A DNA stretch of 64,000 bases from an uncultured Candidatus Saccharibacteria bacterium (GTDB taxonomy: Bacteria > Patescibacteriota > CALEFQ01): contig OZ246404.1 in assembly GCA_965230955.1 (NCBI GenBank), positions 97,184 through 161,183 of the forward strand, written 5' to 3'. Positions 1,635 to 29,468 of this stretch are shown in pieces. The translations under genes and the position numbers were made by a program. The first letter of the stretch is position 1; each line of letters begins with the position of its first letter. The notes under the pieces were generated by a model. It had not been told where the DNA came from, made no database searches, and worked only from the letters and a program-made list of their open reading frames with translations.

Positions 1635-2570
1635 GTGATGCGAAATCTTACATTTGTTGTCGGTTCTGAGGAATCTTGCTTGCGGCTGGATAAATTTTTG
1701 GCGGAAAAATTATCGGAATATTCTCGCAGTACCATCCAGGGGTTTATCGAGGCGGGGCGAGTTCGCGTCAGCGGAGTAATCGCGCTGAAAGTTTCCCGAG
1801 AAGTTTCCCCGGGCGATGAGATTAAGCTCCAGATCGATGAGATCGAGCGCGAGATCAAGCCCCAGCCGGAAATCGAATTCGAAGTGCTTGATGAACAGCC
1901 GGATTTCCTAATCATCAATAAGCCGATGGGTCTGGTGGTTCATCCCGGTAGCGGCAATTTGGAGGGCACGCTGGCCAACGGTTTGGTGGCTCGTTATCCG
2001 GAAATAAAGAAAGTGGGGGAGGATTTTCTGCGTCCCGGAATCGTCCATCGACTGGACAAGGAAACTTCCGGAATCATGTTGGTGGCGCGAACTCAGGTCG
2101 GATATAACCATCTCAAATCTCAGTTTAAAGAACATCAAATAGAGAAAACATACCTGGCGCTACTTGAGGGAGCCTTGGAAAAAGGCCAAGGCGTGATTGA
2201 AGGATTCATGAAACGCTCGACCAATGTACCCGTTAAGAGGGAATTGCTTGAAGGTGATGAGAGTGAAGTTCCTTCGGCTTTTCAAGAAAATGCCCGGACA
2301 CAATCCGGGAAATTTTCCAAGACGATTTATCGGGTTTTGAAAAAAAAAGCCGATCTGACGTTGGTGGAAGCTCGGCCGCAAACGGGGCGGATGCACCAAC
2401 TTCGGGTTCATTTTTCCTCTCTCCAACATCCGATTGTCGGTGATAAGCTTTATGGCCGGCGTGATCAGGCGGGACCATTGATGTTGCTGGCGTGGAAAAT
2501 CAGATTCAAAGATTTGAATAACATTTGGCGGGAATACGAAGTCCCAGTGGATAATAGATTTGTTTTGTAA
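1635..2570 (+). CDS. rluD: RluA-family 23S rRNA pseudouridine synthase (RluD-like) with N-terminal S4 domain
   Basis: HRLDKETSGIMLVA catalytic motif (RluA family HRLD..TSG); S4-like N-terminus LRLDKFLAEKL; 311 aa. Confidence 0.85.
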   Translation: MMRNLTFVVGSEESCLRLDKFLAEKLSEYSRSTIQGFIEAGRVRVSGVIALKVSREVSPGDEIKLQIDEIEREIKPQPEIEFEVLDEQPDFLIINKPMGLVVHPGSGNLEGTLANGLVARYPEIKKVGEDFLRPGIVHRLDKETSGIMLVARTQVGYNHLKSQFKEHQIEKTYLALLEGALEKGQGVIEGFMKRSTNVPVKRELLEGDESEVPSAFQENARTQSGKFSKTIYRVLKKKADLTLVEARPQTGRMHQLRVHFSSLQHPIVGDKLYGRRDQAGPLMLLAWKIRFKDLNNIWREYEVPVDNRFVL

Positions 2571-2645
2571 ACGTAAAACGAAAGACGTAAAATGTAAAAT
2601 TAAGAATAGCTAATTTTACATTTTACGTTTTACATTTTACGTTAA
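2571..2645. repeat. AT-rich imperfect palindrome (cgtaaaatgtaaaat / attttacattttacg), member of window-wide AT-palindrome family; likely terminator of rluD
   Basis: Inverted-repeat arms visible directly in sequence. Confidence 0.6.
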
Positions 2646-2649
2646 AGAT

Positions 2650-3177
2650 ATGGTGCCAATTATCGTCAACGGTCGCGCCGGTAGCGGCAAGTCGACAATT
2701 ATCAAAAAACTTTCAGAGGCGCTACAACTGCCAGCGGTTGATGTCGGCCAAATGTTTAGGGCGGCGGCTCGAGAGAAAAAAATGGAGCTGGCCGAATTCG
2801 GCCGCTATCGCGATACCCACCATGAGGTCGACCGCGAGATTGACACCCGGGTGATGAACGCGATTAAAGGGGGCGATAAGATTGTACAGTCTCGGACGAT
2901 TCCTTATCTTTTCAAAAAAGAAAAACAGCCTTATTTCGGGGTTTTTCTGGAGGTGACGGCGGAAACTCAGGCCAAGCGGATTGCCGAGCGCGACAAAATC
3001 GGCGTCGATCAAGCGCGGCAAAATAACGCTTTGCGCGATGCGGCGGACAGCGCGCGTTACCAAAAAATTTACGGCATTGACATTTCAGACCTTTCCGTTT
3101 ACCATCTAGTAGTTGCCACGGATGATAAGACGCCCGATCAAATAGCGGAAATCATCCTGGAGCAGCTGCCTAAGTAG
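2650..3177 (+). CDS. cmk: cytidylate kinase-like P-loop nucleotide kinase (short form)
   Basis: P-loop GRAGSGKST near N-terminus, followed by LSEAL...VDVGQMFR, like the Cmk GPSGAGKGT...D.G..YR pattern; 175 aa. Confidence 0.55.
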   Translation: MVPIIVNGRAGSGKSTIIKKLSEALQLPAVDVGQMFRAAAREKKMELAEFGRYRDTHHEVDREIDTRVMNAIKGGDKIVQSRTIPYLFKKEKQPYFGVFLEVTAETQAKRIAERDKIGVDQARQNNALRDAADSARYQKIYGIDISDLSVYHLVVATDDKTPDQIAEIILEQLPK

Positions 3178-3231
3178 AATTTACTTGTTTTAATGGAGCG
3201 TTGTGGTTTTGCGACAGCGCCTTACAATTTT

Positions 3232-3774
3232 ATGAGTTATCAAAAAATCAACGAATTTACTAAGTCTCAGCGAAAAGAAGTCCCGGAAATTATGACCGGA
3301 CAGACCGTGAAAGTCCATCAGAAAGTCAAAGAAGGGGACAAAGAACGGATTCAGATTTTTGAAGGCCTGGTTATCGCTCAGCATGCCGGACACGGACAGA
3401 GCGCGACCTTTACCGTGCGAAAAGTATCTGATGGCATTGGAGTTGAAAGAATTTTTCCGCTCCATTCTCCGGCCATTGATAAAATTGAAGTAACAAAGAC
3501 CTCTAAAGTTCGCCGGTCCAAACTTTATTATATGCGCGAGCGTGATATTCGGGTTAAGGAAGATTCCGATCAGCACGATAAGTATCTCAAGCGGGCCGCG
3601 GTGATCGATCAAAAACGAAAAGTGGATCGTGAAAAGAAAAAGGCGGAAGATGAACGGCGGGCGGCAATCAAGGCAGAACGCGAAGCTAAAGCGGCGGCGA
3701 AAGCCAAGGCGGAAGCTGAAGCAAAAAAAGAAGAAGCCAAGCCGGCTGAAAAACCTAAAGAAGAAAAGAAATAG
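3232..3774 (+). CDS. rplS: 50S ribosomal protein bL19 with Lys/Ala/Glu-rich C-terminal tail
   Basis: [25 protein letters not shown]...[28 protein letters not shown] matches the bL19 core. Start taken at MSYQ (3232) rather than the upstream ORF start. Confidence 0.85.
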
Positions 3775-3906: not shown

Positions 3907-3992
3907 GCCCTCGTGGCGGAATTGGCATACGCGGCAGCTTGAGGGGCTGTGCCCGTAAGGGCGTGTGGGTTCAAATCCCACCGAGGGCACCA
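3907..3992 (+). tRNA. tRNA-Leu(GAG), class II with long variable arm
   Basis: Acceptor GCCCTCG/CGAGGGC, anticodon stem GCAGC/GCTGT, loop TTGAGGG, variable hairpin GCCC-GTAA-GGGC, T-arm GTGGG TTCAAAT CCCAC, CCA encoded. Confidence 0.85.
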
Positions 3993-4071
3993 TGTAGCGA
4001 GAGTTAGCACTGTTTGATGTAGCCGTAGCGGGGATGGGAAGGGACGATAATGATGCACCGATCAGGTGGCT

Positions 4072-4162
4072 CCAAAGTTAAAAGTTTTAAAGATCAAAAT
4101 TCAAAACATCGGTTTTAGTATTTTAGCTTTAAACTTCCTTTGAACTTTGATTTTTAAGCTTT
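4072..4162. repeat. AT-rich imperfect palindrome between tRNA-Leu and tRNA-Val
   Basis: caaagttaaaagttttaaagatcaaaattcaaaac ... gctttaaacttcctttgaactttg. Confidence 0.55.
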
Positions 4163-4182
4163 CACACGCTGGTGTGTGATTT

Positions 4183-4259
4183 GGGCAGTTAGCTCAGTTG
4201 GTTAGAGCATCTCGTTTACACCGAGGGGGTCGGGGGTTCAAATCCCTCACTGCCCACCA
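4183..4259 (+). tRNA. tRNA-Val(TAC)
   Basis: GGGCAGT TA GCTC AGTTGGTTA GAGC A TCTCG TTTACAC CGAGG GGGTC GGGGG TTCAAAT CCCTC ACTGCCC A CCA. Confidence 0.85.
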
Positions 4260-4343
4260 AGTCAGTTCTTAGTTATTAGTTCTTAGATTTCAGGCAGGTA
4301 AAAACCTGATTTCTAAAAACTGAGATCTAAGAACTAATAAAAC

Positions 4344-4459
4344 GCCGAGGTAGCTTCCTACTACGCTTAGCTTCGCTAAGCTTCGTAGGGCAGGCAGTGC
4401 GGTTAATCTACGCTAGCGCTTTACGGGCCCAAAGCCCGACAAAGCCTTGGCGTAGGCGG
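4344..4459 (+). mobile_element. insertion at tRNA-Phe 5' end: 12 nt tRNA-Phe 5' fragment (gccgaggtagct) followed by a ~100 nt element with CTACG/CTTCG-box hairpin and a cttcgtagggcaggcagtgcggtta block
   Basis: gccgaggtagct at 4344-4355 equals tRNA-Phe positions 1-12; the element shares its ends with the tRNA-Val insert at 13995-14117. Confidence 0.5.
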
Positions 4460-4507
4460 GCCGAGGTAGCTCAGTGGTACCTGCCTGCCGGCAGGGAGCA
4501 CAGCACT
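4460..4507 (+). other. partial 5' copy of tRNA-Phe (positions 1-33, to the anticodon loop) with a 16 nt GC hairpin (cctgcctgccggcagg, 4480-4495) inserted in the D-loop
   Basis: gccgaggtagctcagtggta[cctgcctgccggcagg]gagcacagcact, identical to tRNA-Phe 4759-4791 apart from the insert. Confidence 0.6.
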
Positions 4508-4516
4508 AAAAACAAT

Positions 4517-4758
4517 ATGGAGGGATACAAAATTTATGTTCTAAAATCTGAGATCGATGGCCGTCTGTATGTGGGCCTTAGTCAAAACGTCAATAAGCGT
4601 TTGGCTGACCATAAATTTGGTAGGGTATTTGCCACTAAAGGATATAGGCCATGGAAATTAATTTATTCGGAATTTATTGGGTCGAGGAAACACGCTAGAC
4701 GGCGAGAAAAATTTCTCAAAAGTGGCTGCGGAAAAGAATATTTAAAATTTAAACTAAC

Positions 4759-4768
<10 letters not shown>
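4517..4768 (+). CDS. stand-alone GIY-YIG nuclease (YhbQ/URI-domain-like, 83 aa); its last codons and stop lie inside tRNA-Phe
   Basis: YKIYVLKS...GRLYVGLSQNVNKRLADH...REKFLKSGCG = GIY-YIG signature; ATG at 4517; TAG stop at 4766-4768 is inside the tRNA-Phe 5' end. Confidence 0.8.
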
Positions 4769-4830
<62 letters not shown>

Positions 4831-4833
<3 letters not shown>

Positions 4834-5029
4834 GACTACGCTCCGCTTCGCGGAGCTTCGTCTGGCAGGCCAGACTTTTTCCTCACTGTGAGTTTACCCG
4901 CCGTAGCCCCCGCCGAATCGGCGGGCGAAGGCGGGTCTGGCAGGCCAGATTGTTATATAGTATAATTTACCCAGCGGCGGTCCGCAGTCAGCGGGCCTGC
5001 CCGCCGTAGTCCGCCTTGGGCGGACGTAG
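4831..5029. repeat. cluster of GC-rich hairpins with CG(A/T)AG boxes between tRNA-Phe and tRNA-Gly (4831-4866, 4896-4937, 4995-5029), plus two copies of gtctggcaggccaga
   Basis: ccagaCTACGctccgc ttcg gcggagCTTCGtctgg; cccgcCGTAGccc[ccgccgaatcggcgg]gCGAAGgcggg; cccgcCGTAGtccgcc ttgg ggcggaCGTAGgcggg (the last arm overlaps the tRNA-Gly 5' end). Confidence 0.55.
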
Positions 5030-5104
<75 letters not shown>

Positions 5105-12660: not shown

Positions 12661-12853
12661 TAGTTCGTACAGTCTGATTGTTTTATTCTTGCTACCATGC
12701 GAACATTGTGTGGACCTTTCCTTTTATCGCCTGCGTTGACGCTAATGGGTTTCTAGCGTAAAATAAAAACAGCTTTGGGACATGGCCAAAGACAAAAGAC
12801 CGATGACCAAAGACTAATTTAGGGCCCATAGCTCAGTGGTTAGAGCACCCGGC

Positions 12854-13222
12854 TCAAGACAGTACCTTTAAATCTAGATCAGGATTATGAAGTTCCGCGT
12901 GGCAATTCTGGCAAACCAAACGGCATTTGGCTACCTCTTTTAGAACACTATCGAAGGTTCTATTGGAAAGTGATCTCATGTCTAATTTGAACTCTTTGCC
13001 GGAAACATGATGAAAAGTAAGCGCTGATAAGTTGCGCTTGTATCCACAGCGGGAACAGCAACCACCTCGTTGCTTAACCAAAAGCAGCTTGCGGTTTATT
13101 CCGCGCTTCTTTTGGGCGTCATATGACTGGTGCACTTTATTCTTGCACCTCGTAGAGCAATATTGGCTTTGCTGTCCGGACAATGAGTGTCCGCAAACAG
13201 AACAGTTAGACTGTTTCTTCAT
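12854..13222 (-). CDS. HNH homing-endonuclease-like protein encoded antisense within the intron (122 aa from MKKQSN)
   Basis: C..CG...C..C zinc knuckle, LTFHHVSGKEFKLDMRSLSNRTF...CRLVCQNCHAELH = HNH motif. Its stop TGA (rev-comp of 12854-12856) overlaps the 5' splice junction. The longer upstream ORF extension to 13498 looks like read-through. Confidence 0.75.
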   Translation of the reverse strand: MKKQSNCSVCGHSLSGQQSQYCSTRCKNKVHQSYDAQKKRGINRKLLLVKQRGGCCSRCGYKRNLSALTFHHVSGKEFKLDMRSLSNRTFDSVLKEVAKCRLVCQNCHAELHNPDLDLKVLS

Positions 13223-13495
13223 AAGCCAATAATAGCATCTAGAATTAATCTGTCCAGGGCAGTCGGTGGGGCAACCTGCCGATGTAACTCGCCAAATTCG
13301 GGGAACCCTTCTCCTGTAAGGGAATGGCAATCCCGAGCCAAGCTCTCCTTCGCTCCTCCCGGAGCTTCGGAGGGAAGGTGTAGAGACTGTACGACGAGCC
13401 CCCACATTCAAAATATTGATGGTGGGAGAAGAGACAGTCCAGACTACAAACCCTGTACCGTAAGGTACAGAGGCAGTGAAAACTGTAGTAGTAAG
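12855..13495 (+). ncRNA. group I intron (IC3-like, Azoarcus tRNA-Ile-type core) in the anticodon loop
   Basis: Insert follows U33 and ends in G. The 3' ~230 nt contain CAAAUUCGG, AAUGGCAAUCCCGAGCCAAGC and GAAGGUGUAGAGACU blocks recalled from the Azoarcus ribozyme, plus a GNRA hairpin ctgtacc-GTAA-ggtacag. Confidence 0.7.
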
Positions 13496-13574
13496 CATAA
13501 CCGGAGGGTCGCTGGTTCGATCCCAGCTGGGCCCACCATCCTCGCCCCCTCACTCAGGTATTTGAAAATAATTC

Positions 13575-13700
13575 CAAATCCTGAGTGAGGGGGCTCAAAA
13601 TTTAAAATCTAAAGTCCAAAGGTCAAAGAAAATCAAAACGTCGCAGTCTTTAGATTTTGAGTTTTAATTTCTTTTAGACTTCTAGCTTTTAATTTTCCGC
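13575..13700. repeat. AT-rich imperfect palindrome between tRNA(CAU) and tRNA-Arg
   Basis: aaaatttaaaatctaaagtccaaaggtcaaag ... ctttagattttgagttttaatttcttttagac. Confidence 0.55.
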
Positions 13701-13717
13701 CGTTGCGGCGGTGTCAG

Positions 13718-13794
13718 GCGCCCGTAGCTCAGCTGGATAGAGCAGCGGTTTTCTAAACCGCAGGTCGCAGGTCCGAATCCTGCCGGGCGTACCA
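13718..13794 (+). tRNA. tRNA-Arg(TCT)
   Basis: GCGCCCG TA GCTC AGCTGGATA GAGC A GCGGT TTTCTAA ACCGC AGGTC GCAGG TCCGAAT CCTGC CGGGCGT A CCA. Confidence 0.85.
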
Positions 13795-13799
13795 AGCCA

Positions 13800-13915
13800 C
13801 ACGCCCCGAACGGCCGGTGGAAATTTAAAACTCAAAGTCCAAAAATTAAATAATTTTAGTTTTTAGCTTTAAACTTCTTTTAAATTTTAGGCTTTGAATT
13901 TCGGTGCCGTTGTCT
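13800..13915. repeat. AT-rich imperfect palindrome
   Basis: aaatttaaaactcaaagtccaaaaattaaat ... ctttaaacttcttttaaattttaggctttgaattt. Confidence 0.55.
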
Positions 13916-13936
13916 GTATTTTGCCGAAACCATCGG

Positions 13937-13965
13937 TTGACAACATCGCTTAAAAATATTACACT
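13937..13965 (+). promoter_or_regulatory. sigma70-like promoter TTGACA-17-TACACT for the downstream tRNA-Val/His block
   Basis: TTGACA 13937-13942; TACACT 13960-13965. Confidence 0.45.
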
Positions 13966-13983
13966 GTCGCTTATTCCTCTGTG

Positions 13984-14117
13984 TGTGTAGCTCCCTACTA
14001 CCTGCCTACCGGCAGGCAGGCGCGCTCACTTCGTTCGCGCTTCGTAGGGCGGGCAGTGCGATTAGATGGTTTCGGTAATAAAGTTTGCGTTTTGCATTTT
14101 GAATTTTGCATTAGTCT
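13984..14117 (+). mobile_element. insertion at tRNA-Val 5' end: 11 nt duplicate gtgtgtagctc (13984-13994) + ~123 nt element (cctactac...ctgcctaccggcagg...cttcgtagggcgggcagtgcgatta...) + intact tRNA
   Basis: Duplicate equals tRNA-Val(GAC) positions 3-13. The element's start (cctactac) and internal block match the tRNA-Phe insert, and its GC mini-hairpin equals the one inserted in the partial tRNA-Phe D-loop. Confidence 0.5.
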
Positions 14118-14194
14118 GGGTGTGTAGCTCAGTTGGTTAGAGCGTTACCTCGACACGGTAAAGGTCACAGGTTCGATTCCTGTCACACCCACCA
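14118..14194 (+). tRNA. tRNA-Val(GAC)
   Basis: GGGTGTG TA GCTC AGTTGGTTA GAGC G TTACC TCGACAC GGTAA AGGTC ACAGG TTCGATT CCTGT CACACCC A CCA. Confidence 0.85.
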
Positions 14195-14214
14195 GCCTCG
14201 CTCGCGGCGCCCCG

Positions 14215-14336
14215 CGCCGCTCGCTCAAGATTAAAAATTTAAAGATAAAAATTCAAAAGAAATTCAAGATTTCAGCTTTAAATTTGTTTTAGCTTTTGCA
14301 TTTTTGATTTTAAATTTCCCGCCCATGGCGGGTCAT
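14215..14336. repeat. AT-rich imperfect palindrome ending in GC mini-hairpin cccgcccatggcggg
   Basis: caagattaaaaatttaaagataaaaattcaaaag ... cttttgcatttttgattttaaattt. Confidence 0.55.
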
Positions 14337-14389
14337 GGTGACTGTAGCTCAGTTGGTTAGCCCGCCGAATCGGCGGGGGCGGGTTGTGG
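14337..14389 (+). other. partial 5' copy of tRNA-His (to anticodon loop position ~37) with 17 nt GC hairpin cccgccgaatcggcggg replacing part of the D-arm
   Basis: ggtgactgtagctcagttggttag[cccgccgaatcggcggg]ggcgggttgtgg versus the intact tRNA-His at 14670. Confidence 0.6.
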
Positions 14390-14415
14390 ATCCGGAGTAA
14401 TTAAGAGGAGGGGAT

Positions 14416-14704
14416 ATGTATTACGTATATATTTTACAGAGTCTAAAAGACGGGAAATTATATTACGGAATGACATCCGGCTTGACTCGTAGATTCTGGC
14501 AACATTGCTTTGGACTAAATAAGTCTACTAGCAGTCGTCGTCCTTTGCATTGATTTATTATGAAGCTTATTTATGTAATGAGGATGCCAGGATTAGAGAA
14601 AGATTTCTTAAAAGCGGTCGAGGACGTGAGGTAATCAGAAAGCATTTAAAAATCTTCTTTGGTTCATGTGGTGACTGTAGCTCAGTTGGTTAGAGCGGCG
14701 GGTT
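14416..14704 (+). pseudogene. decayed GIY-YIG nuclease gene (in-frame TGA at 14551, then a frameshift; C-terminal fragment reads into tRNA-His)
   Basis: MYYVYILQSLKDGKLYYGMTSGLTRRFWQH...RRPLH* then, in another frame, NEDARIREKFLKSGRGREVIRKHLKI; homologous to the 4517-4768 GIY-YIG. TGA is a genuine stop elsewhere in the window (e.g. the lspA and comM ends). Confidence 0.6.
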
Positions 14705-14747
14705 GTGGTCCCGCAGGTCGTGGGTTCAACTCCCACCAGTCACCCCA
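14670..14747 (+). tRNA. tRNA-His(GTG) with genomically encoded G-1
   Basis: g GTGACTG TA GCTC AGTTGGTTA GAGC G GCGGG TTGTGGT CCCGC AGGTC GTGGG TTCAACT CCCAC CAGTCAC C CCA; the extra 5' G pairs with discriminator C. Confidence 0.85.
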
Positions 14748-28205: not shown

Positions 28206-29468
28206 ATGATGAAATGCCCCAAATGTGGCGCCAGTATGCCTGAGCACGAAAAATTTTGTATGCGGTGCGGGCAGGCAATGAGTACCAGAATGGCTCCGGC
28301 AGCCACTCCCGCTGCCCCGGTTCCTCCCCAAGCTCCGGCGGCGCCTTTGCCGCCCCAATCGCCGCACGTTTTTCGCCCCGGGATGAAAAAAAATATGATG
28401 GGCCTGTGGATTGGTATCGCGGTGGCGGCGATAGCGGCTGTTTTTTTGATTTTGTATTTTACCGGTGTTTTGGGCGGGCGTCCGACCGGAAAAGAAGTCG
28501 GACAGAGCGAAACTACCGTATCCAATGCCAAAGTTGACGTAAAATGGGAAACGAAAGATACTTTGCCGACCGCCTTTTATCCCAATACCACCGAACGTTT
28601 GATCCGGGTCAAGCTCAAGTCGGATCAGCCCACGAAAGTAAATATTTCGGTTGAGATTCCCAAAATAACCCAAAAAGAAACCAAAACCGTTGATGTAACG
28701 GAAATTGATAAGCCTTATGATTTTAAGCCTGCTTTCTTGAAAGAGGCTTACGGCCCGTTGGACAAGGCTCAGGATACATTTATTGATTTGAAAGTCACCG
28801 ATGAAAAAGGCGGTTCGATTATCAGCGAAAGTATCCCGATTCGGACGCTCTCGCGCAACGATATGGTCTGGATAGATAAAGATGGGACGAAAAATTACGA
28901 ATATATTGCACGTTGGGTCACCAAGGACAACAAAGAAGTAAAAGAATTGGTGCGCAAGGCTTCGGATTACAATCAGAAAATTTGCGGTCAATCGGCGATG
29001 GTGGGATATCTGGGCGATGAGACCATGGTCGCTTGCCAGATGGCGTCGGTTTTTTCCGCCATGCAGGATTATTACAAAATCAAATATGTCGCTTCGCCGG
29101 AGAGCTATCAGACTTCCAATGCCCAAGCAATTCGACTGCCGGAAGAAGTTCTGATGGAAAAAAGCGGTTTGTGTATCGAAACTACTATTCTGATGGCCGC
29201 GGCTCTGGAAAATCTGGGAATGGAGCCAGCCATTATCATTATCCCCGGTCATGCTTGGGTGGCCGTTAAGGCTTATGCCGGAGCGCCGTATTACTTCCAT
29301 CTGGAAACTACCATGCTCGATTCCCCGGTGCTGGATGCCATGACCACGGCGGAACAAGAGTGGGCGCAAAGCGGCGGCAGCGCGCTGGCTATCGTTGATA
29401 TCAAAAAAGCTCGCGCGGACGGGATTTTACCATTCGGTGAAACTGCCGGCGAACCCACGATGCAATAA
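28206..29468 (+). CDS. zinc-ribbon / single-TM / extracellular transglutaminase-like cysteine-protease-fold protein
   Basis: N-terminal KCPKCG...CMRCG zinc ribbon; Pro/Ala-rich linker; TM; C-terminal GLCIETTILMAAALENLG ... IIIPGHAWVAV (transglutaminase-core Cys/His pattern). Confidence 0.65.
   Translation: MMKCPKCGASMPEHEKFCMRCGQAMSTRMAPAATPAAPVPPQAPAAPLPPQSPHVFRPGMKKNMMGLWIGIAVAAIAAVFLILYFTGVLGGRPTGKEVGQSETTVSNAKVDVKWETKDTLPTAFYPNTTERLIRVKLKSDQPTKVNISVEIPKITQKETKTVDVTEIDKPYDFKPAFLKEAYGPLDKAQDTFIDLKVTDEKGGSIISESIPIRTLSRNDMVWIDKDGTKNYEYIARWVTKDNKEVKELVRKASDYNQKICGQSAMVGYLGDETMVACQMASVFSAMQDYYKIKYVASPESYQTSNAQAIRLPEEVLMEKSGLCIETTILMAAALENLGMEPAIIIIPGHAWVAVKAYAGAPYYFHLETTMLDSPVLDAMTTAEQEWAQSGGSALAIVDIKKARADGILPFGETAGEPTMQ

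Follow-up and report, generated by a model that had tools for sequence, protein, structure and literature searches.

The classical group I introns of bacterial transfer RNA (tRNA) genes, as named by Williams (2020, bioRxiv 10.1101/2020.01.27.920355), interrupt tRNA-Leu at position 34/35, tRNA-Arg at 36/37, tRNA-fMet at 33/34 and tRNA-Ile2 at 36/37, and 17 more types were added there. A survey of 4,934 complete genomes reports 333 tRNA introns, of which 81% belong to subgroup IC and 12 contain endonuclease genes (Nakagawa et al., 2026, mSystems, PMC13011429). [quoted passage not shown] Its Table S5 includes IC3 introns that lack an open reading frame (ORF) at the 33/34 site of tRNA-Ile2 (CAT), for example in the Acidobacteriota genomes GCA_016700075.1 and GCA_016700175.1. 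For 95 complete Patescibacteria genomes the survey states that no tRNA intron is of the IC type and lists no Ile2 intron, and its authors note that endonuclease-bearing introns may be under-detected. Here we describe a locus in a 64-kilobase (kb) stretch of DNA from an uncultured Candidatus Saccharibacteria bacterium (contig OZ246404.1; the whole stretch is termed the window) that appears to supply such a member. With a probability of about 0.78, we read it as a mobile IC3-type group I intron inserted between U33 and C34 of a tRNA-Ile2(CAU) gene, with a homing-endonuclease gene lying backwards in the loop of its P1 stem (Table 1).

The host gene is a tRNA split into two halves, which an initial annotation of the sequence had placed at 12822-12854 and 13496-13538. 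This placement is confirmed by joining nucleotide 12854 to 13496 in silico, which yields a 76-nucleotide (nt) cloverleaf with a perfect 7-base-pair (bp) acceptor stem, the anticodon loop CU-CAU-AA and an encoded CCA. Run in intron mode, ARAGORN likewise reports 12822-13538 as a tRNA with a 641-nt insert. With default settings the same program finds nine tRNAs in the window and none at 12822-13538, and an Rfam search of the whole window at gathering score returns only nine ordinary tRNAs, calling neither a tRNA nor an intron at this position. When the spliced sequence was compared with 5,426 complete E. coli genomes, the top match was a CAU-anticodon tRNA annotated as tRNA-Ile, which is tRNA-Ile2 (82.9% identity over 76/76 positions). 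Identity is lower, ~71% to an assumed reference sequence of elongator tRNA-Met and ~61% to one of tRNA-fMet. Since G1 and C72 are paired in the spliced tRNA, an initiator is ruled out. Nakagawa et al. (2026, PMC13011429, Table S5) assign the tRNAs that harbour the related ORF-less introns to Ile2. The resemblance to tRNA-Ile2 rather than elongator Met that the initial annotation had proposed is borne out by the E. coli match, and we consider tRNA-Ile2, rather than elongator or initiator tRNA-Met, the most likely identity.

The arrangement recurs in many genomes. In a scan of one genome per species (GTDB), a relative of the HNH protein described below was encoded in 126 species genomes, and 80 loci, all from metagenome-assembled genomes (MAGs), were fetched. 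A split tRNA with an antisense HNH gene is present in 78 of the 80, comprising 76 that were fully analysed, one with a longer intron (L007) and one cut by a contig end (L047); locus L059, also cut by a contig end, shows the tRNA 5′ half only. Throughout the 76 loci the ORF is antisense within the split tRNA, and the insert measures 594-684 nt (median 608). Since the same architecture is found in 78 of 80 related loci, it cannot be due to chance. Carriers from the Candidate Phyla Radiation (CPR) belong to Saccharibacteria, Berkelbacteria, Doudnabacteria, Gracilibacteria, Peregrinibacteria, Peribacteria, Moranbacteria and Howlettbacteria, and those from Chloroflexota to Anaerolineae, Chloroflexia and Thermoflexus. 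Single carrier genomes are labelled Latescibacteria, Bdellovibrionales and Chthonomonadaceae. Locus L068, from the Bdellovibrionales MAG, has exons and intron ends nearly identical to those of two loci from Patescibacteria / Moranbacteria MAGs (L079, L078); the near-identity of L068 and L079 across phylum labels reflects either a very recent transfer or a binning error.

These relatives fix the position of the intron. From the window alone, three splice registers yield an identical mature tRNA and a fourth would yield the anticodon CAA; the U33/C34 register is the single candidate with U at position -1 and G at the omega position. The 5′ exon end GGCT, the terminal intron G and the 3′ exon start CATAAC are each invariant in all 76 related loci. 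The first three intron bases vary (CAA in 40 loci, TAA in 18, TAG in 6, CAG in 4, TGA in 3, and others), with base 1 a pyrimidine (C or U) in every analysed locus. Because U33 and the terminal G never change, the intron sits between U33 and C34, and the register chosen in the initial annotation, an insert of 641 nt that starts after U33 and ends with G, is thereby settled. An alternative ARAGORN intron-mode call, with the intron after position 36 of a tRNA-Leu(CAA), was rejected because it would put A at -1 and U at the intron 3′ end, because the tRNA has only a short variable loop, and because the 76-locus comparison fixes U33|C34. The annotation had also regarded 33/34 as unusual beside a common 36/37 site. 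This view does not hold, since 33/34 is the classical site in cyanobacterial tRNA-fMet, and ORF-less IC3 introns at Ile2 33/34 are already listed (Table S5 of PMC13011429).

The 3′ part of the insert has the features of a group I ribozyme. In a relaxed Rfam search of positions 12700-13650, the group I intron model RF00028 matches 13194-13470 (+) over its full length with 48.8 bits (E 3.5e-11). The covariance search suggested in the initial annotation finds the intron, at a score that falls short of the Rfam gathering score (see below). The blocks that the annotation had picked out by eye (CAAATTCGG, AATGGCAATCCCGAGCCAAGC and GAAGGTGTAGAGACT) and its GTAA hairpin are all present in the insert.

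Support for the fold comes from alignment A2 of the 76 loci, which begins at the guide sequence and ends six bases beyond the 3′ splice site. RNAalifold recovers from it P2, P3, P4, P5, P6, P8 and a three-way P9 domain, with double changes in 38 of 55 pairs. It also proposes a GGGC/GUCC helix (columns 2-5 with 288-291), which we rejected as an artefact of the omitted exon and the disallowed P7 pseudoknot, both sides being invariant and without covariation. For pair counting this helix was replaced by the P7 pseudoknot, giving 56 pairs in 11 helices, and 500 shuffles and slid partners served as controls. Standard pairs fill 97.0% of the 4,246 cells, compared with 83.3% (standard deviation 0.3) in the shuffles and 31-44% with slid partners. 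The covariation score is 0.469, against 0.202 shuffled and at most 0.096 slid, and none of the 500 shuffles reaches the observed value on any pairing measure. Compensatory changes on both sides are seen in 39 of the 56 core pairs, including pairs in P3, P7 and P9. For example, a P7 pair is G-C in 40 sequences and A-U in 35, and a pair of the P9 closing stem is C-G in 37 and A-U in 35. Within this closing stem, 4 of 5 pairs show double changes (in 35/76 sequences at one pair).

The window copy forms 52 of the 56 core pairs (family mean 54.2, range 49-56) and retains all 55 core columns that are invariant in the alignment. Its core is 70-74% identical to two published IC3 introns at Ile2 33/34. 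On the basis of this similarity, together with blocks shared with Azoarcus, the intron is probably of subgroup IC3 type. The blocks concerned are CAAAUUCGG, GCCGAGCCAAGC and GAAGGUGUAGAGACU, which we take to be present also in the Azoarcus tRNA-Ile2 intron. An intron with such a core would be expected to self-splice. Two other pairings were set aside. One joins GACAGU at the intron 5′ end with ACUGU near the 3′ end, and is better explained by a local P9b hairpin; the other, a ‘P1’ hairpin in the Rfam alignment (13198-13219), falls inside the N-terminal codons of the ORF.

The initial annotation had not placed P1, which we locate as a stem of ~25 bp that ends in the guide sequence GGGC. The usual IC3 layout, with the guide directly 3′ of the 5′ splice site, was rejected because nothing suitable is found there. 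The proposed pairs are C13260-G31, G13259-C32, a G13258-U33 wobble, and G13257 opposite intron base 1, which is C or U. Beyond these, ~25-30 further intron bases are matched by the sequence 5′ of GGGC, and the resulting duplex in the window has an energy of -18.2 kcal/mol. Across the family, the two strands of a locus give a mean of -21.2 kcal/mol, whereas strands taken from different loci give -12.5 and shuffled partners -11.5 kcal/mol (Mann-Whitney p 2e-33). Because the guide lies 400 nt downstream of the splice site, the whole 369-nt ORF (including its stop codon) is accommodated in loop L1 of this long P1. In the two ORF-less Acidobacteriota introns, A31 is matched with GGGUU where G31 is matched with GGGC here, which constitutes a compensatory change. 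The minimum-energy fold of the 5′ region of these ORF-less relatives is the same P1, closing a hairpin of ~45 nt. The Azoarcus intron likewise has three exon-derived P1 pairs only.

The ORF in L1 runs antisense to the tRNA and encodes a protein of 122 amino acids (aa). Six PHROG families annotated as HNH endonuclease match it, among them PHROG 2255 (E 1.1e-18) and PHROG 3106 (E 2.9e-17). A large protein collection contains 215 homologues at ~60-70% identity, and the few whose source is named come from Candidatus Saccharibacteria. Ten residues are invariant in 24 aligned sequences (C56, C59, H71, H72, N87, C104, N106, C107, H108 and H112), composing the HNH pattern CxxC...HH...N...CxxCH...H, and the window ORF keeps every one. 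Among 68 intact members, mean pairwise differences at the first, second and third codon positions are 0.325/0.225/0.604, and about half of the differing codons are synonymous. This concentration of variation at third positions indicates that the protein is under purifying selection. Over residues 45-113, identity reaches 44% (E 1e-17) with the HNH protein encoded in a Paceibacteria tRNA-Asn 35/36 intron (Nakagawa et al., 2026); the zinc-ribbon residues 1-44 are not common to both.

Structure prediction is weakly consistent with this. The AlphaFold model has a confidence score (pLDDT) of 85.4, and the top 15 Foldseek matches in the PDB are all HNH-type nucleases (Cap5, T4 endonuclease VII, Gme HNH and Cas9), with TasH and VcaM4I lower, but the similarity is weak and no match is significant (best E 0.14, TM ~0.3). 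A search of NCBIfam with the ORF gave no significant family, and a PDB sequence search gave nothing useful. The antisense HNH ORF of 122 aa that the initial annotation had recognized in the 5′ part of the insert is thus upheld by the PHROG matches (E 1e-18), the conserved residue pattern and the homology to a published intron HNH protein, and we conclude from the comparative sequence evidence that it is a real HNH gene. Its product is predicted to be a nuclease, with homing as its probable role and an intron-less tRNA gene as its presumed target.

The gene ends in an unusual place. Its TGA spans the 5′ splice site and uses U33, the last exon base, an overlap that the annotation had noticed and that proves to be shared. 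The stop codon lies exactly on the splice site in 29 of 68 loci, the commonest state. Most of the other ORFs extend 15-95 nt into the antisense of exon 1, and six end 8-13 nt short of the splice site. Many homologues terminate in ...IEPTALTTEL, a sequence that corresponds to the D arm and anticodon stem of the tRNA read in reverse. A database protein at this locus (P0001, 214 aa; 12854-13498, -) starts too far upstream, in the ribozyme and 3′ exon, and the start shared with homologues gives 122 aa. The longer start looks like an annotation artefact of the undetected intron and tRNA.

Promoter predictions suggest that the two strands are expressed separately. In the window, the -10 box of the antisense gene ends 6 nt before the ATG, with no Shine-Dalgarno motif between. 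Counted over 68 loci, the bases at -12 to -7 relative to the ATG are T (60), A (60), n, A (46), A (48) and T (61), again without a Shine-Dalgarno motif. Because the -10 box is only six bases from the start codon and a Shine-Dalgarno motif is absent, a leaderless mRNA is predicted for the HNH gene and seems likely. The complement of the guide sequence is followed immediately by the -35 region, which makes the promoter an integral part of the P1 3′ strand. Two free-standing HNH copies outside introns retain the exact arrangement TATAAT-GCAGTT-ATG, and since these copies keep the -10 box without having a P1, it is a feature of the gene and not of the RNA structure. Among the more distant relatives in phages, by contrast, ordinary Shine-Dalgarno sites are common. 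Transcription of both strands, and the start points marked in Table 1, are predicted from these sequence signals.

An antisense transcript that ended at the terminator-like hairpin at 12773-12791 would possibly also cover the antisense of exon 1. On the other side of the locus, the inverted repeat at 13544-13594 is a possible terminator or processing hairpin; the terminator scan did not call it, owing to its long loop. Matches to microRNA, snoRNA and other sub-threshold families in the relaxed Rfam search were dismissed as noise from this hairpin.

Table 1. Features at the split tRNA-Ile2 locus, in window coordinates. Helices, promoters, terminators and gene functions are predictions.
Feature	Position	Strand	Basis and remarks
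Sigma-70-like promoter TTGACG-17-TAAAAT, presumed pre-tRNA start	12736..12764	+	Consensus scan, 10/12 matches, position only
Terminator-like hairpin with T-run, ~60 nt past the HNH stop	12773..12791	-	Consensus scan only; candidate end of the antisense transcript
tRNA-Ile2(CAU) exon 1	12822..12854	+	Acceptor 5′ strand, D arm, anticodon stem 5′ strand, C32, U33; ARAGORN on spliced and native sequence
P1 5′ strand	12852..12880	+	Exon G31-C32-U33 and first ~26 intron bases; opposite strand encodes the HNH C-terminus
Putative HNH homing-endonuclease gene, 122 aa plus stop, in L1	12854..13222	-	ATG 13222-13220, TGA 12856-12854
Group I intron, 641 nt, between U33 and C34	12855..13495	+	Last base 13495 = omega-G
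Predicted promoter of the antisense gene	13229..13256	-	-35 TGGACA 13256-13251, 16-nt spacer with TGn, -10 TATTAT 13234-13229; scan 10/12, extended -10
P1 3′ strand, ending in guide sequence GGGC 13257-13260	13236..13260	+	GGGC invariant 76/76
P2 hairpin, GCAA tetraloop, directly 3′ of guide sequence	13261..13284	+	All 10 pairs changed on both sides; 96% of cells paired
Catalytic core	13288..13439	+	RF00028 alignment, RNAalifold, pair counts with controls
P3	13288-13293 with 13393-13398	+	
P4	13298-13303 with 13331-13336	+	P5 also in core
P6	13337-13379	+	
P7	13385-13389 with 13435-13439	+	Pseudoknot with P3
P8	13399-13428	+	
P9 three-way domain	13443..13495	+	Closing stem 13443-13447 with 13488-13492, then AAG to omega-G 13495
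P9 hairpins	13451-13472 (GUAA loop), 13473-13486 (GAAA loop)	+	Both covary
tRNA-Ile2 exon 2	13496..13538	+	C34-A35-U36, A37, A38, anticodon stem 3′ strand, variable loop, T arm, acceptor 3′ strand, encoded CCA
Perfect 15-bp inverted repeat (GCCCCCTCACTCAGG ... CCTGAGTGAGGGGGC), 21-nt loop, 6 nt past the tRNA 3′ end	13544..13594	.	Sequence

The related loci display the element in several states. In-frame stop codons (one to three) interrupt the HNH ORF in L048, L053, L079 and L080, substitutions affect the HNH motif (NCH to NCY, HH to RH, HH to HL) in L010, L060 and L072, and L074 is without an ATG start and has lost a conserved cysteine (KC to KV). All eight loci with decayed ORFs nonetheless retain 51-56 of the 56 ribozyme pairs. 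A Gracilibacteria locus (L040; JALNWA010000001.1, reverse-complement 181-507 and 1992-2423) carries this intron in tRNA-Ile2 as a 250-nt version without an ORF. A Peribacteria locus (L063; CALREX010000005.1, reverse-complement 71-205 and 1998-2366) is cut, leaving only the 3′ exon and the 3′ portion of the same intron. In each of these two cases, a free-standing HNH homologue with the TATAAT-GCAGTT-ATG start is encoded 1.5-1.8 kb away on the opposite strand, a state that may be intermediate between free-standing and intron-resident genes. At the other extreme, the long intron of L007 (Anaerolineae MAG; DAOUAJ010000153.1, reverse-complement 1965-3346) measures ~1,307 nt, interrupts the same split tRNA-Ile2 and holds two endonuclease genes, one on each strand. 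In L1 lies the antisense HNH gene (1989-2474, -). The second is a sense gene for a 201-aa LAGLIDADG_2 protein (2616-3221, +; PF03161, E 6.8e-36), inserted just past P7 and P3′, after the GTAGAGACT block.

More distant HNH relatives occur in viruses. Seventeen of them, with 36-60% identity, are free-standing on IMG/VR viral contigs (L082-L098), and no group I intron was found at any of these 17 loci. Many phage relatives lie inside tRNA arrays (as at L083, where 12 tRNAs occupy the opposite strand) or beside tmRNA genes (L086, L095), and on several phage contigs the HNH gene is on the strand opposite the tRNAs. Furthermore, the exact 27-nt anticodon arm GAGCACCCGGCTCATAACCGGAGGGTC is present in uninterrupted form in 69 metagenome contigs (L100-L168) from unrelated organisms and habitats, and the presumed target of the endonuclease, as judged from these matches, is widely available. 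The decayed, ORF-less, two-endonuclease, free-standing and phage states fit a cycle of invasion, fixation and decay of a homing endonuclease. They also fit the movement of a free-standing endonuclease into a resident intron. A free-standing enzyme that is already specific for a conserved gene can enter a resident intron, as Bonocora and Shub reportedly described in 2009.

Taken as a mobile intron, the locus would function as follows. A pre-tRNA would be transcribed from the promoter located ~60 nt upstream. The ~25-bp P1 would place G31-C32-U33 on the guide GGGC 400 nt downstream, with U33 in a wobble pair with G, and would loop out the 369-nt ORF, while P2-P9 would form the catalytic core. 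Guanosine-initiated self-splicing with G13495 as omega-G would then join U33 to C34 to give tRNA-Ile2, whose C34 would become open to lysidine modification by TilS. Independently, the sigma-70-type promoter in the P1 3′ strand would drive a leaderless mRNA from the opposite strand, yielding the 122-aa protein with its zinc ribbon and HNH motif. This nuclease would cleave tRNA-Ile2 genes that lack the intron, close to the anticodon, and their repair on the template of the intron-bearing copy would spread the element by homing.

Several observations weigh against this reading. The RF00028 score is 1.2 bits below the Rfam gathering score of 50, and the match is missed with default filters. The low score can be attributed to the P1/P2 part of the model being forced onto the ORF, as the ~370-nt insert cannot be placed in the model P1. 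The window copy has 4 non-standard pairs among the 56, three of them C-A. In the Pfam check advocated by the initial annotation, the HNH model PF01844 matched residues 56-73 only and stayed below its cut-off (E 0.033; 14.8 bits vs 21.4). Two weak terminator-like hairpins with T-rich tails are present on the sense strand in L1 (13090-13105 and 13116-13133) and, if they work, would cut some pre-tRNA transcripts before the ribozyme. The window contains no other CAU tRNA, but a second, uninterrupted tRNA-Ile2 elsewhere in the genome is possible. No empty-site allele of the window locus was found, since none of the 69 metagenome contigs with the uninterrupted 27-nt arm carries the window flanks. 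Some of the cross-phylum cases could be MAG binning errors, as the near-identical L068 and L079 illustrate. Finally, the case for splicing, for transcription of both strands and for nuclease activity is deduced from sequence.

The alternative that survives best, which we nevertheless consider unlikely, accepts a real and splicing intron that is fixed and vertically inherited. The HNH protein would be a passenger that no longer homes, being idle, decaying or put to other use, and the spread across phyla would reflect old transfers and binning errors. In its favour, no empty-site allele of this locus was found, the ribozymes in alignment A2 cluster largely by host group, ORFs have decayed at several loci, and L068 and L079 are almost the same despite their phylum labels. 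A dead passenger, however, would not be expected to show purifying selection at the protein level together with a conserved promoter, and the window ORF is intact with all invariant catalytic and zinc residues. Moreover, the tRNAs that host this same element differ considerably in their acceptor stems, and its carriers belong to distant phyla.

A second alternative, which we rate as improbable, assigns the antisense arrangement a regulatory role. Here the antisense gene or its transcript would tune splicing and the supply of tRNA-Ile2, through RNA pairing with L1 or convergent transcription, or the protein would act as a maturase. The two transcripts would be complementary throughout 369 nt, the promoter is built into P1, and the orientation is antisense in 78 of 78 intron-resident copies. 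Loci with broken ORFs keep intact ribozymes, however, and the occurrence of this intron in forms without an ORF indicates that its ribozyme can do without the protein. HNH proteins are not known to serve as maturases. A related idea is that the antisense layout is functional in itself, not an accident of insertion, with transcription of one strand or RNA-RNA pairing controlling the other. We regard this as doubtful. If true, it would tie together endonuclease expression, intron splicing and the availability of the one tRNA that decodes AUA in a reduced genome, and the free-standing copies beside ORF-less introns and the phage relatives in tRNA arrays would form a stepwise record of an endonuclease invading an existing intron.

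Even less probable, in our judgement, is a dead tRNA gene in which the intron no longer splices and AUA is decoded by a second, uninterrupted tRNA-Ile2 elsewhere. The search for such a copy covered 64 kb only, four consensus positions are unpaired in the window copy, and the RF00028 score is below threshold. Against this, the exons are perfectly tRNA-like, the 55 invariant core columns are all kept, the 52 pairs formed fall inside the family range of 49-56, the 370-nt insert accounts for the Rfam score, and the window offers no other CAU tRNA. Small CPR genomes usually have single tRNA copies, which also argues for a working gene. The notion that the minus-strand ORF is no gene at all, being open by chance or through constraint on the RNA structure, could appeal to the sub-threshold Pfam score and to a database entry that is clearly wrong at its start, but it is effectively refuted by the PHROG matches (E 1e-18), the 215 homologues, the 126 species with a relative, the variation of 0.60 at third versus 0.23 at second codon positions, the free-standing and phage homologues outside introns, and a pLDDT of 85.

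The locus opens a same-strand tRNA cluster (12822-14747) in which the split Ile2 gene is followed by Arg(UCU) at 13718, Val(GAC) at 14118 and His(GUG) at 14671. Leu, Val, Phe and Gly tRNAs make up another cluster at 3907-5104. The window has a G+C content of 46-50% and contains housekeeping genes including ValRS, PNPase, PcrA and DinG. The nearest named relatives of the PNPase, at ~53-58% identity, come mostly from Saccharibacteria, Falkowbacteria, Moranbacteria and Parcubacteria, beside a few Bacillota-type matches of comparable identity, and a deep-branching CPR lineage is a likely source. A 420-aa ORF at 28206-29465 (+) partially matches the NCBIfam ProA anti-phage model NF058533 (E 9e-33; 113 bits vs a cut-off of 1500), which indicates a shared domain at most.

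Each part of the element is of a kind already known, as are ORF-less IC3 introns at Ile2 33/34 and the 33/34 position as a classical site. As far as we have found, what is new is an IC3 intron at Ile2 33/34 that bears an endonuclease gene, the gene always being antisense in the P1 loop, with a predicted leaderless promoter in P1 and a stop codon on or beyond the splice site, combined with a broad distribution over CPR bacteria and Chloroflexota and with being overlooked by default annotation. The initial annotation had called the antisense orientation unusual. In agreement with this, a 2014 review of bacterial group I introns (PMC3984707) makes no mention of antisense or opposite-strand genes, and a text search of the literature with partial coverage returned no bacterial antisense intron endonuclease gene; a eukaryotic precedent exists in I-DirII (see below). 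As far as the searchable literature shows, this is the first antisense intron endonuclease gene from bacteria.

These findings have practical consequences. With default tools, namely ARAGORN and Rfam at gathering score, and in the database, which lists a spurious 214-aa ORF, the split tRNA, its intron and the true ORF go undetected or are miscalled. Carriers appear to be without tRNA-Ile2, which is essential for reading AUA, and this affects completeness estimates for CPR and Chloroflexota genomes. The Ile2 33/34 class gains an endonuclease-bearing member, and Patescibacteria do carry IC-type tRNA introns, unlike the picture from 95 genomes. The predicted design is compact, with a promoter in one P1 strand, C-terminal codons in the other, a stop codon on the splice site and a leaderless mRNA. 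An antisense layout would also avoid ribosomes traversing the ribozyme in a non-coding host RNA. For models of intron invasion, the free-standing phage genes, the genes beside ORF-less introns, and the intron-resident, decayed and two-endonuclease states form a natural series. A 122-aa HNH enzyme with a tRNA gene as its probable target may, in addition, interest enzyme engineers.

Comparison with described systems places these features in context. The Azoarcus tRNA-Ile2 intron resembles the window intron in tRNA species, IC3 ribozyme and three exon pairs in P1, but it is inserted at 36/37, its guide reads CAU, and it spans ~205 nt with no ORF, whereas the window intron lies at 33/34, has a guide that reads GCU, and spans 641 nt with an endonuclease gene. 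T4 SegB is a free-standing homing endonuclease of the GIY-YIG type in a phage tRNA cluster. The phage relatives of the window protein are likewise free-standing in tRNA arrays, which fits an origin as free-standing endonucleases that target tRNA genes. Unlike SegB, they are HNH proteins, and they are only 36-60% identical to the window protein and located outside introns. SegB also appears in PMC13096335.

The closest ribozyme relatives, the ORF-less Acidobacteriota Ile2 introns, share with the window intron the tRNA, the site, the subgroup, the three-way P9 domain, the 3′ end (...GTAG-TNGT-AAG|CATAA) and the logic of P1, where theirs pairs GGGUU with GACU-C. They are 243-244 nt long, with a P1 hairpin of ~45 nt and no ORF, whereas here L1 holds a 369-nt antisense HNH gene and its predicted promoter. 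The cyanobacterial tRNA-fMet intron carries I-Ssp6803I, reportedly described by Bonocora and Shub in 2001, and the ORF of this enzyme is on the sense strand. This intron in tRNA-fMet(CAU) (PF11645 cases in PMC13011429) has in common with ours the CAU anticodon, the 33/34 site, an endonuclease-bearing IC3 ribozyme and an enzyme targeting the anticodon region of a tRNA, the last of these being predicted here. It differs in having an initiator tRNA as host and a PD-(D/E)XK enzyme, in place of Ile2 and an antisense HNH gene with its own promoter. The IA introns at 35/36 of Patescibacteria tRNA-Asn(GUU) (PMC13011429, e.g. GCA_023898525.1) share the HNH clade, the Patescibacteria hosts and the anticodon-loop location. 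Their HNH gene is on the sense strand, in another subgroup, tRNA and site, and its product matches PF01844 and lacks the region of residues 1-44 of the window protein.

For the antisense orientation itself, the precedent is eukaryotic. Antisense endonuclease genes are documented in group I introns of nuclear ribosomal DNA (rDNA), for example I-DirII (Edgell et al., 2011, PMC3073962, citing Johansen et al., 2006). As predicted for the window locus, the endonuclease gene of I-DirII lies opposite the host RNA gene and has its own promoter, so that its expression is uncoupled from the ribozyme transcript. I-DirII is a His-Cys box enzyme encoded in eukaryotic rDNA and expressed from a Pol II promoter with a spliceosomal intron and a poly(A) tail, whereas the gene described here is bacterial, resides in a tRNA, encodes an HNH protein and would be expressed as a leaderless mRNA from a sigma-70-type promoter within P1.

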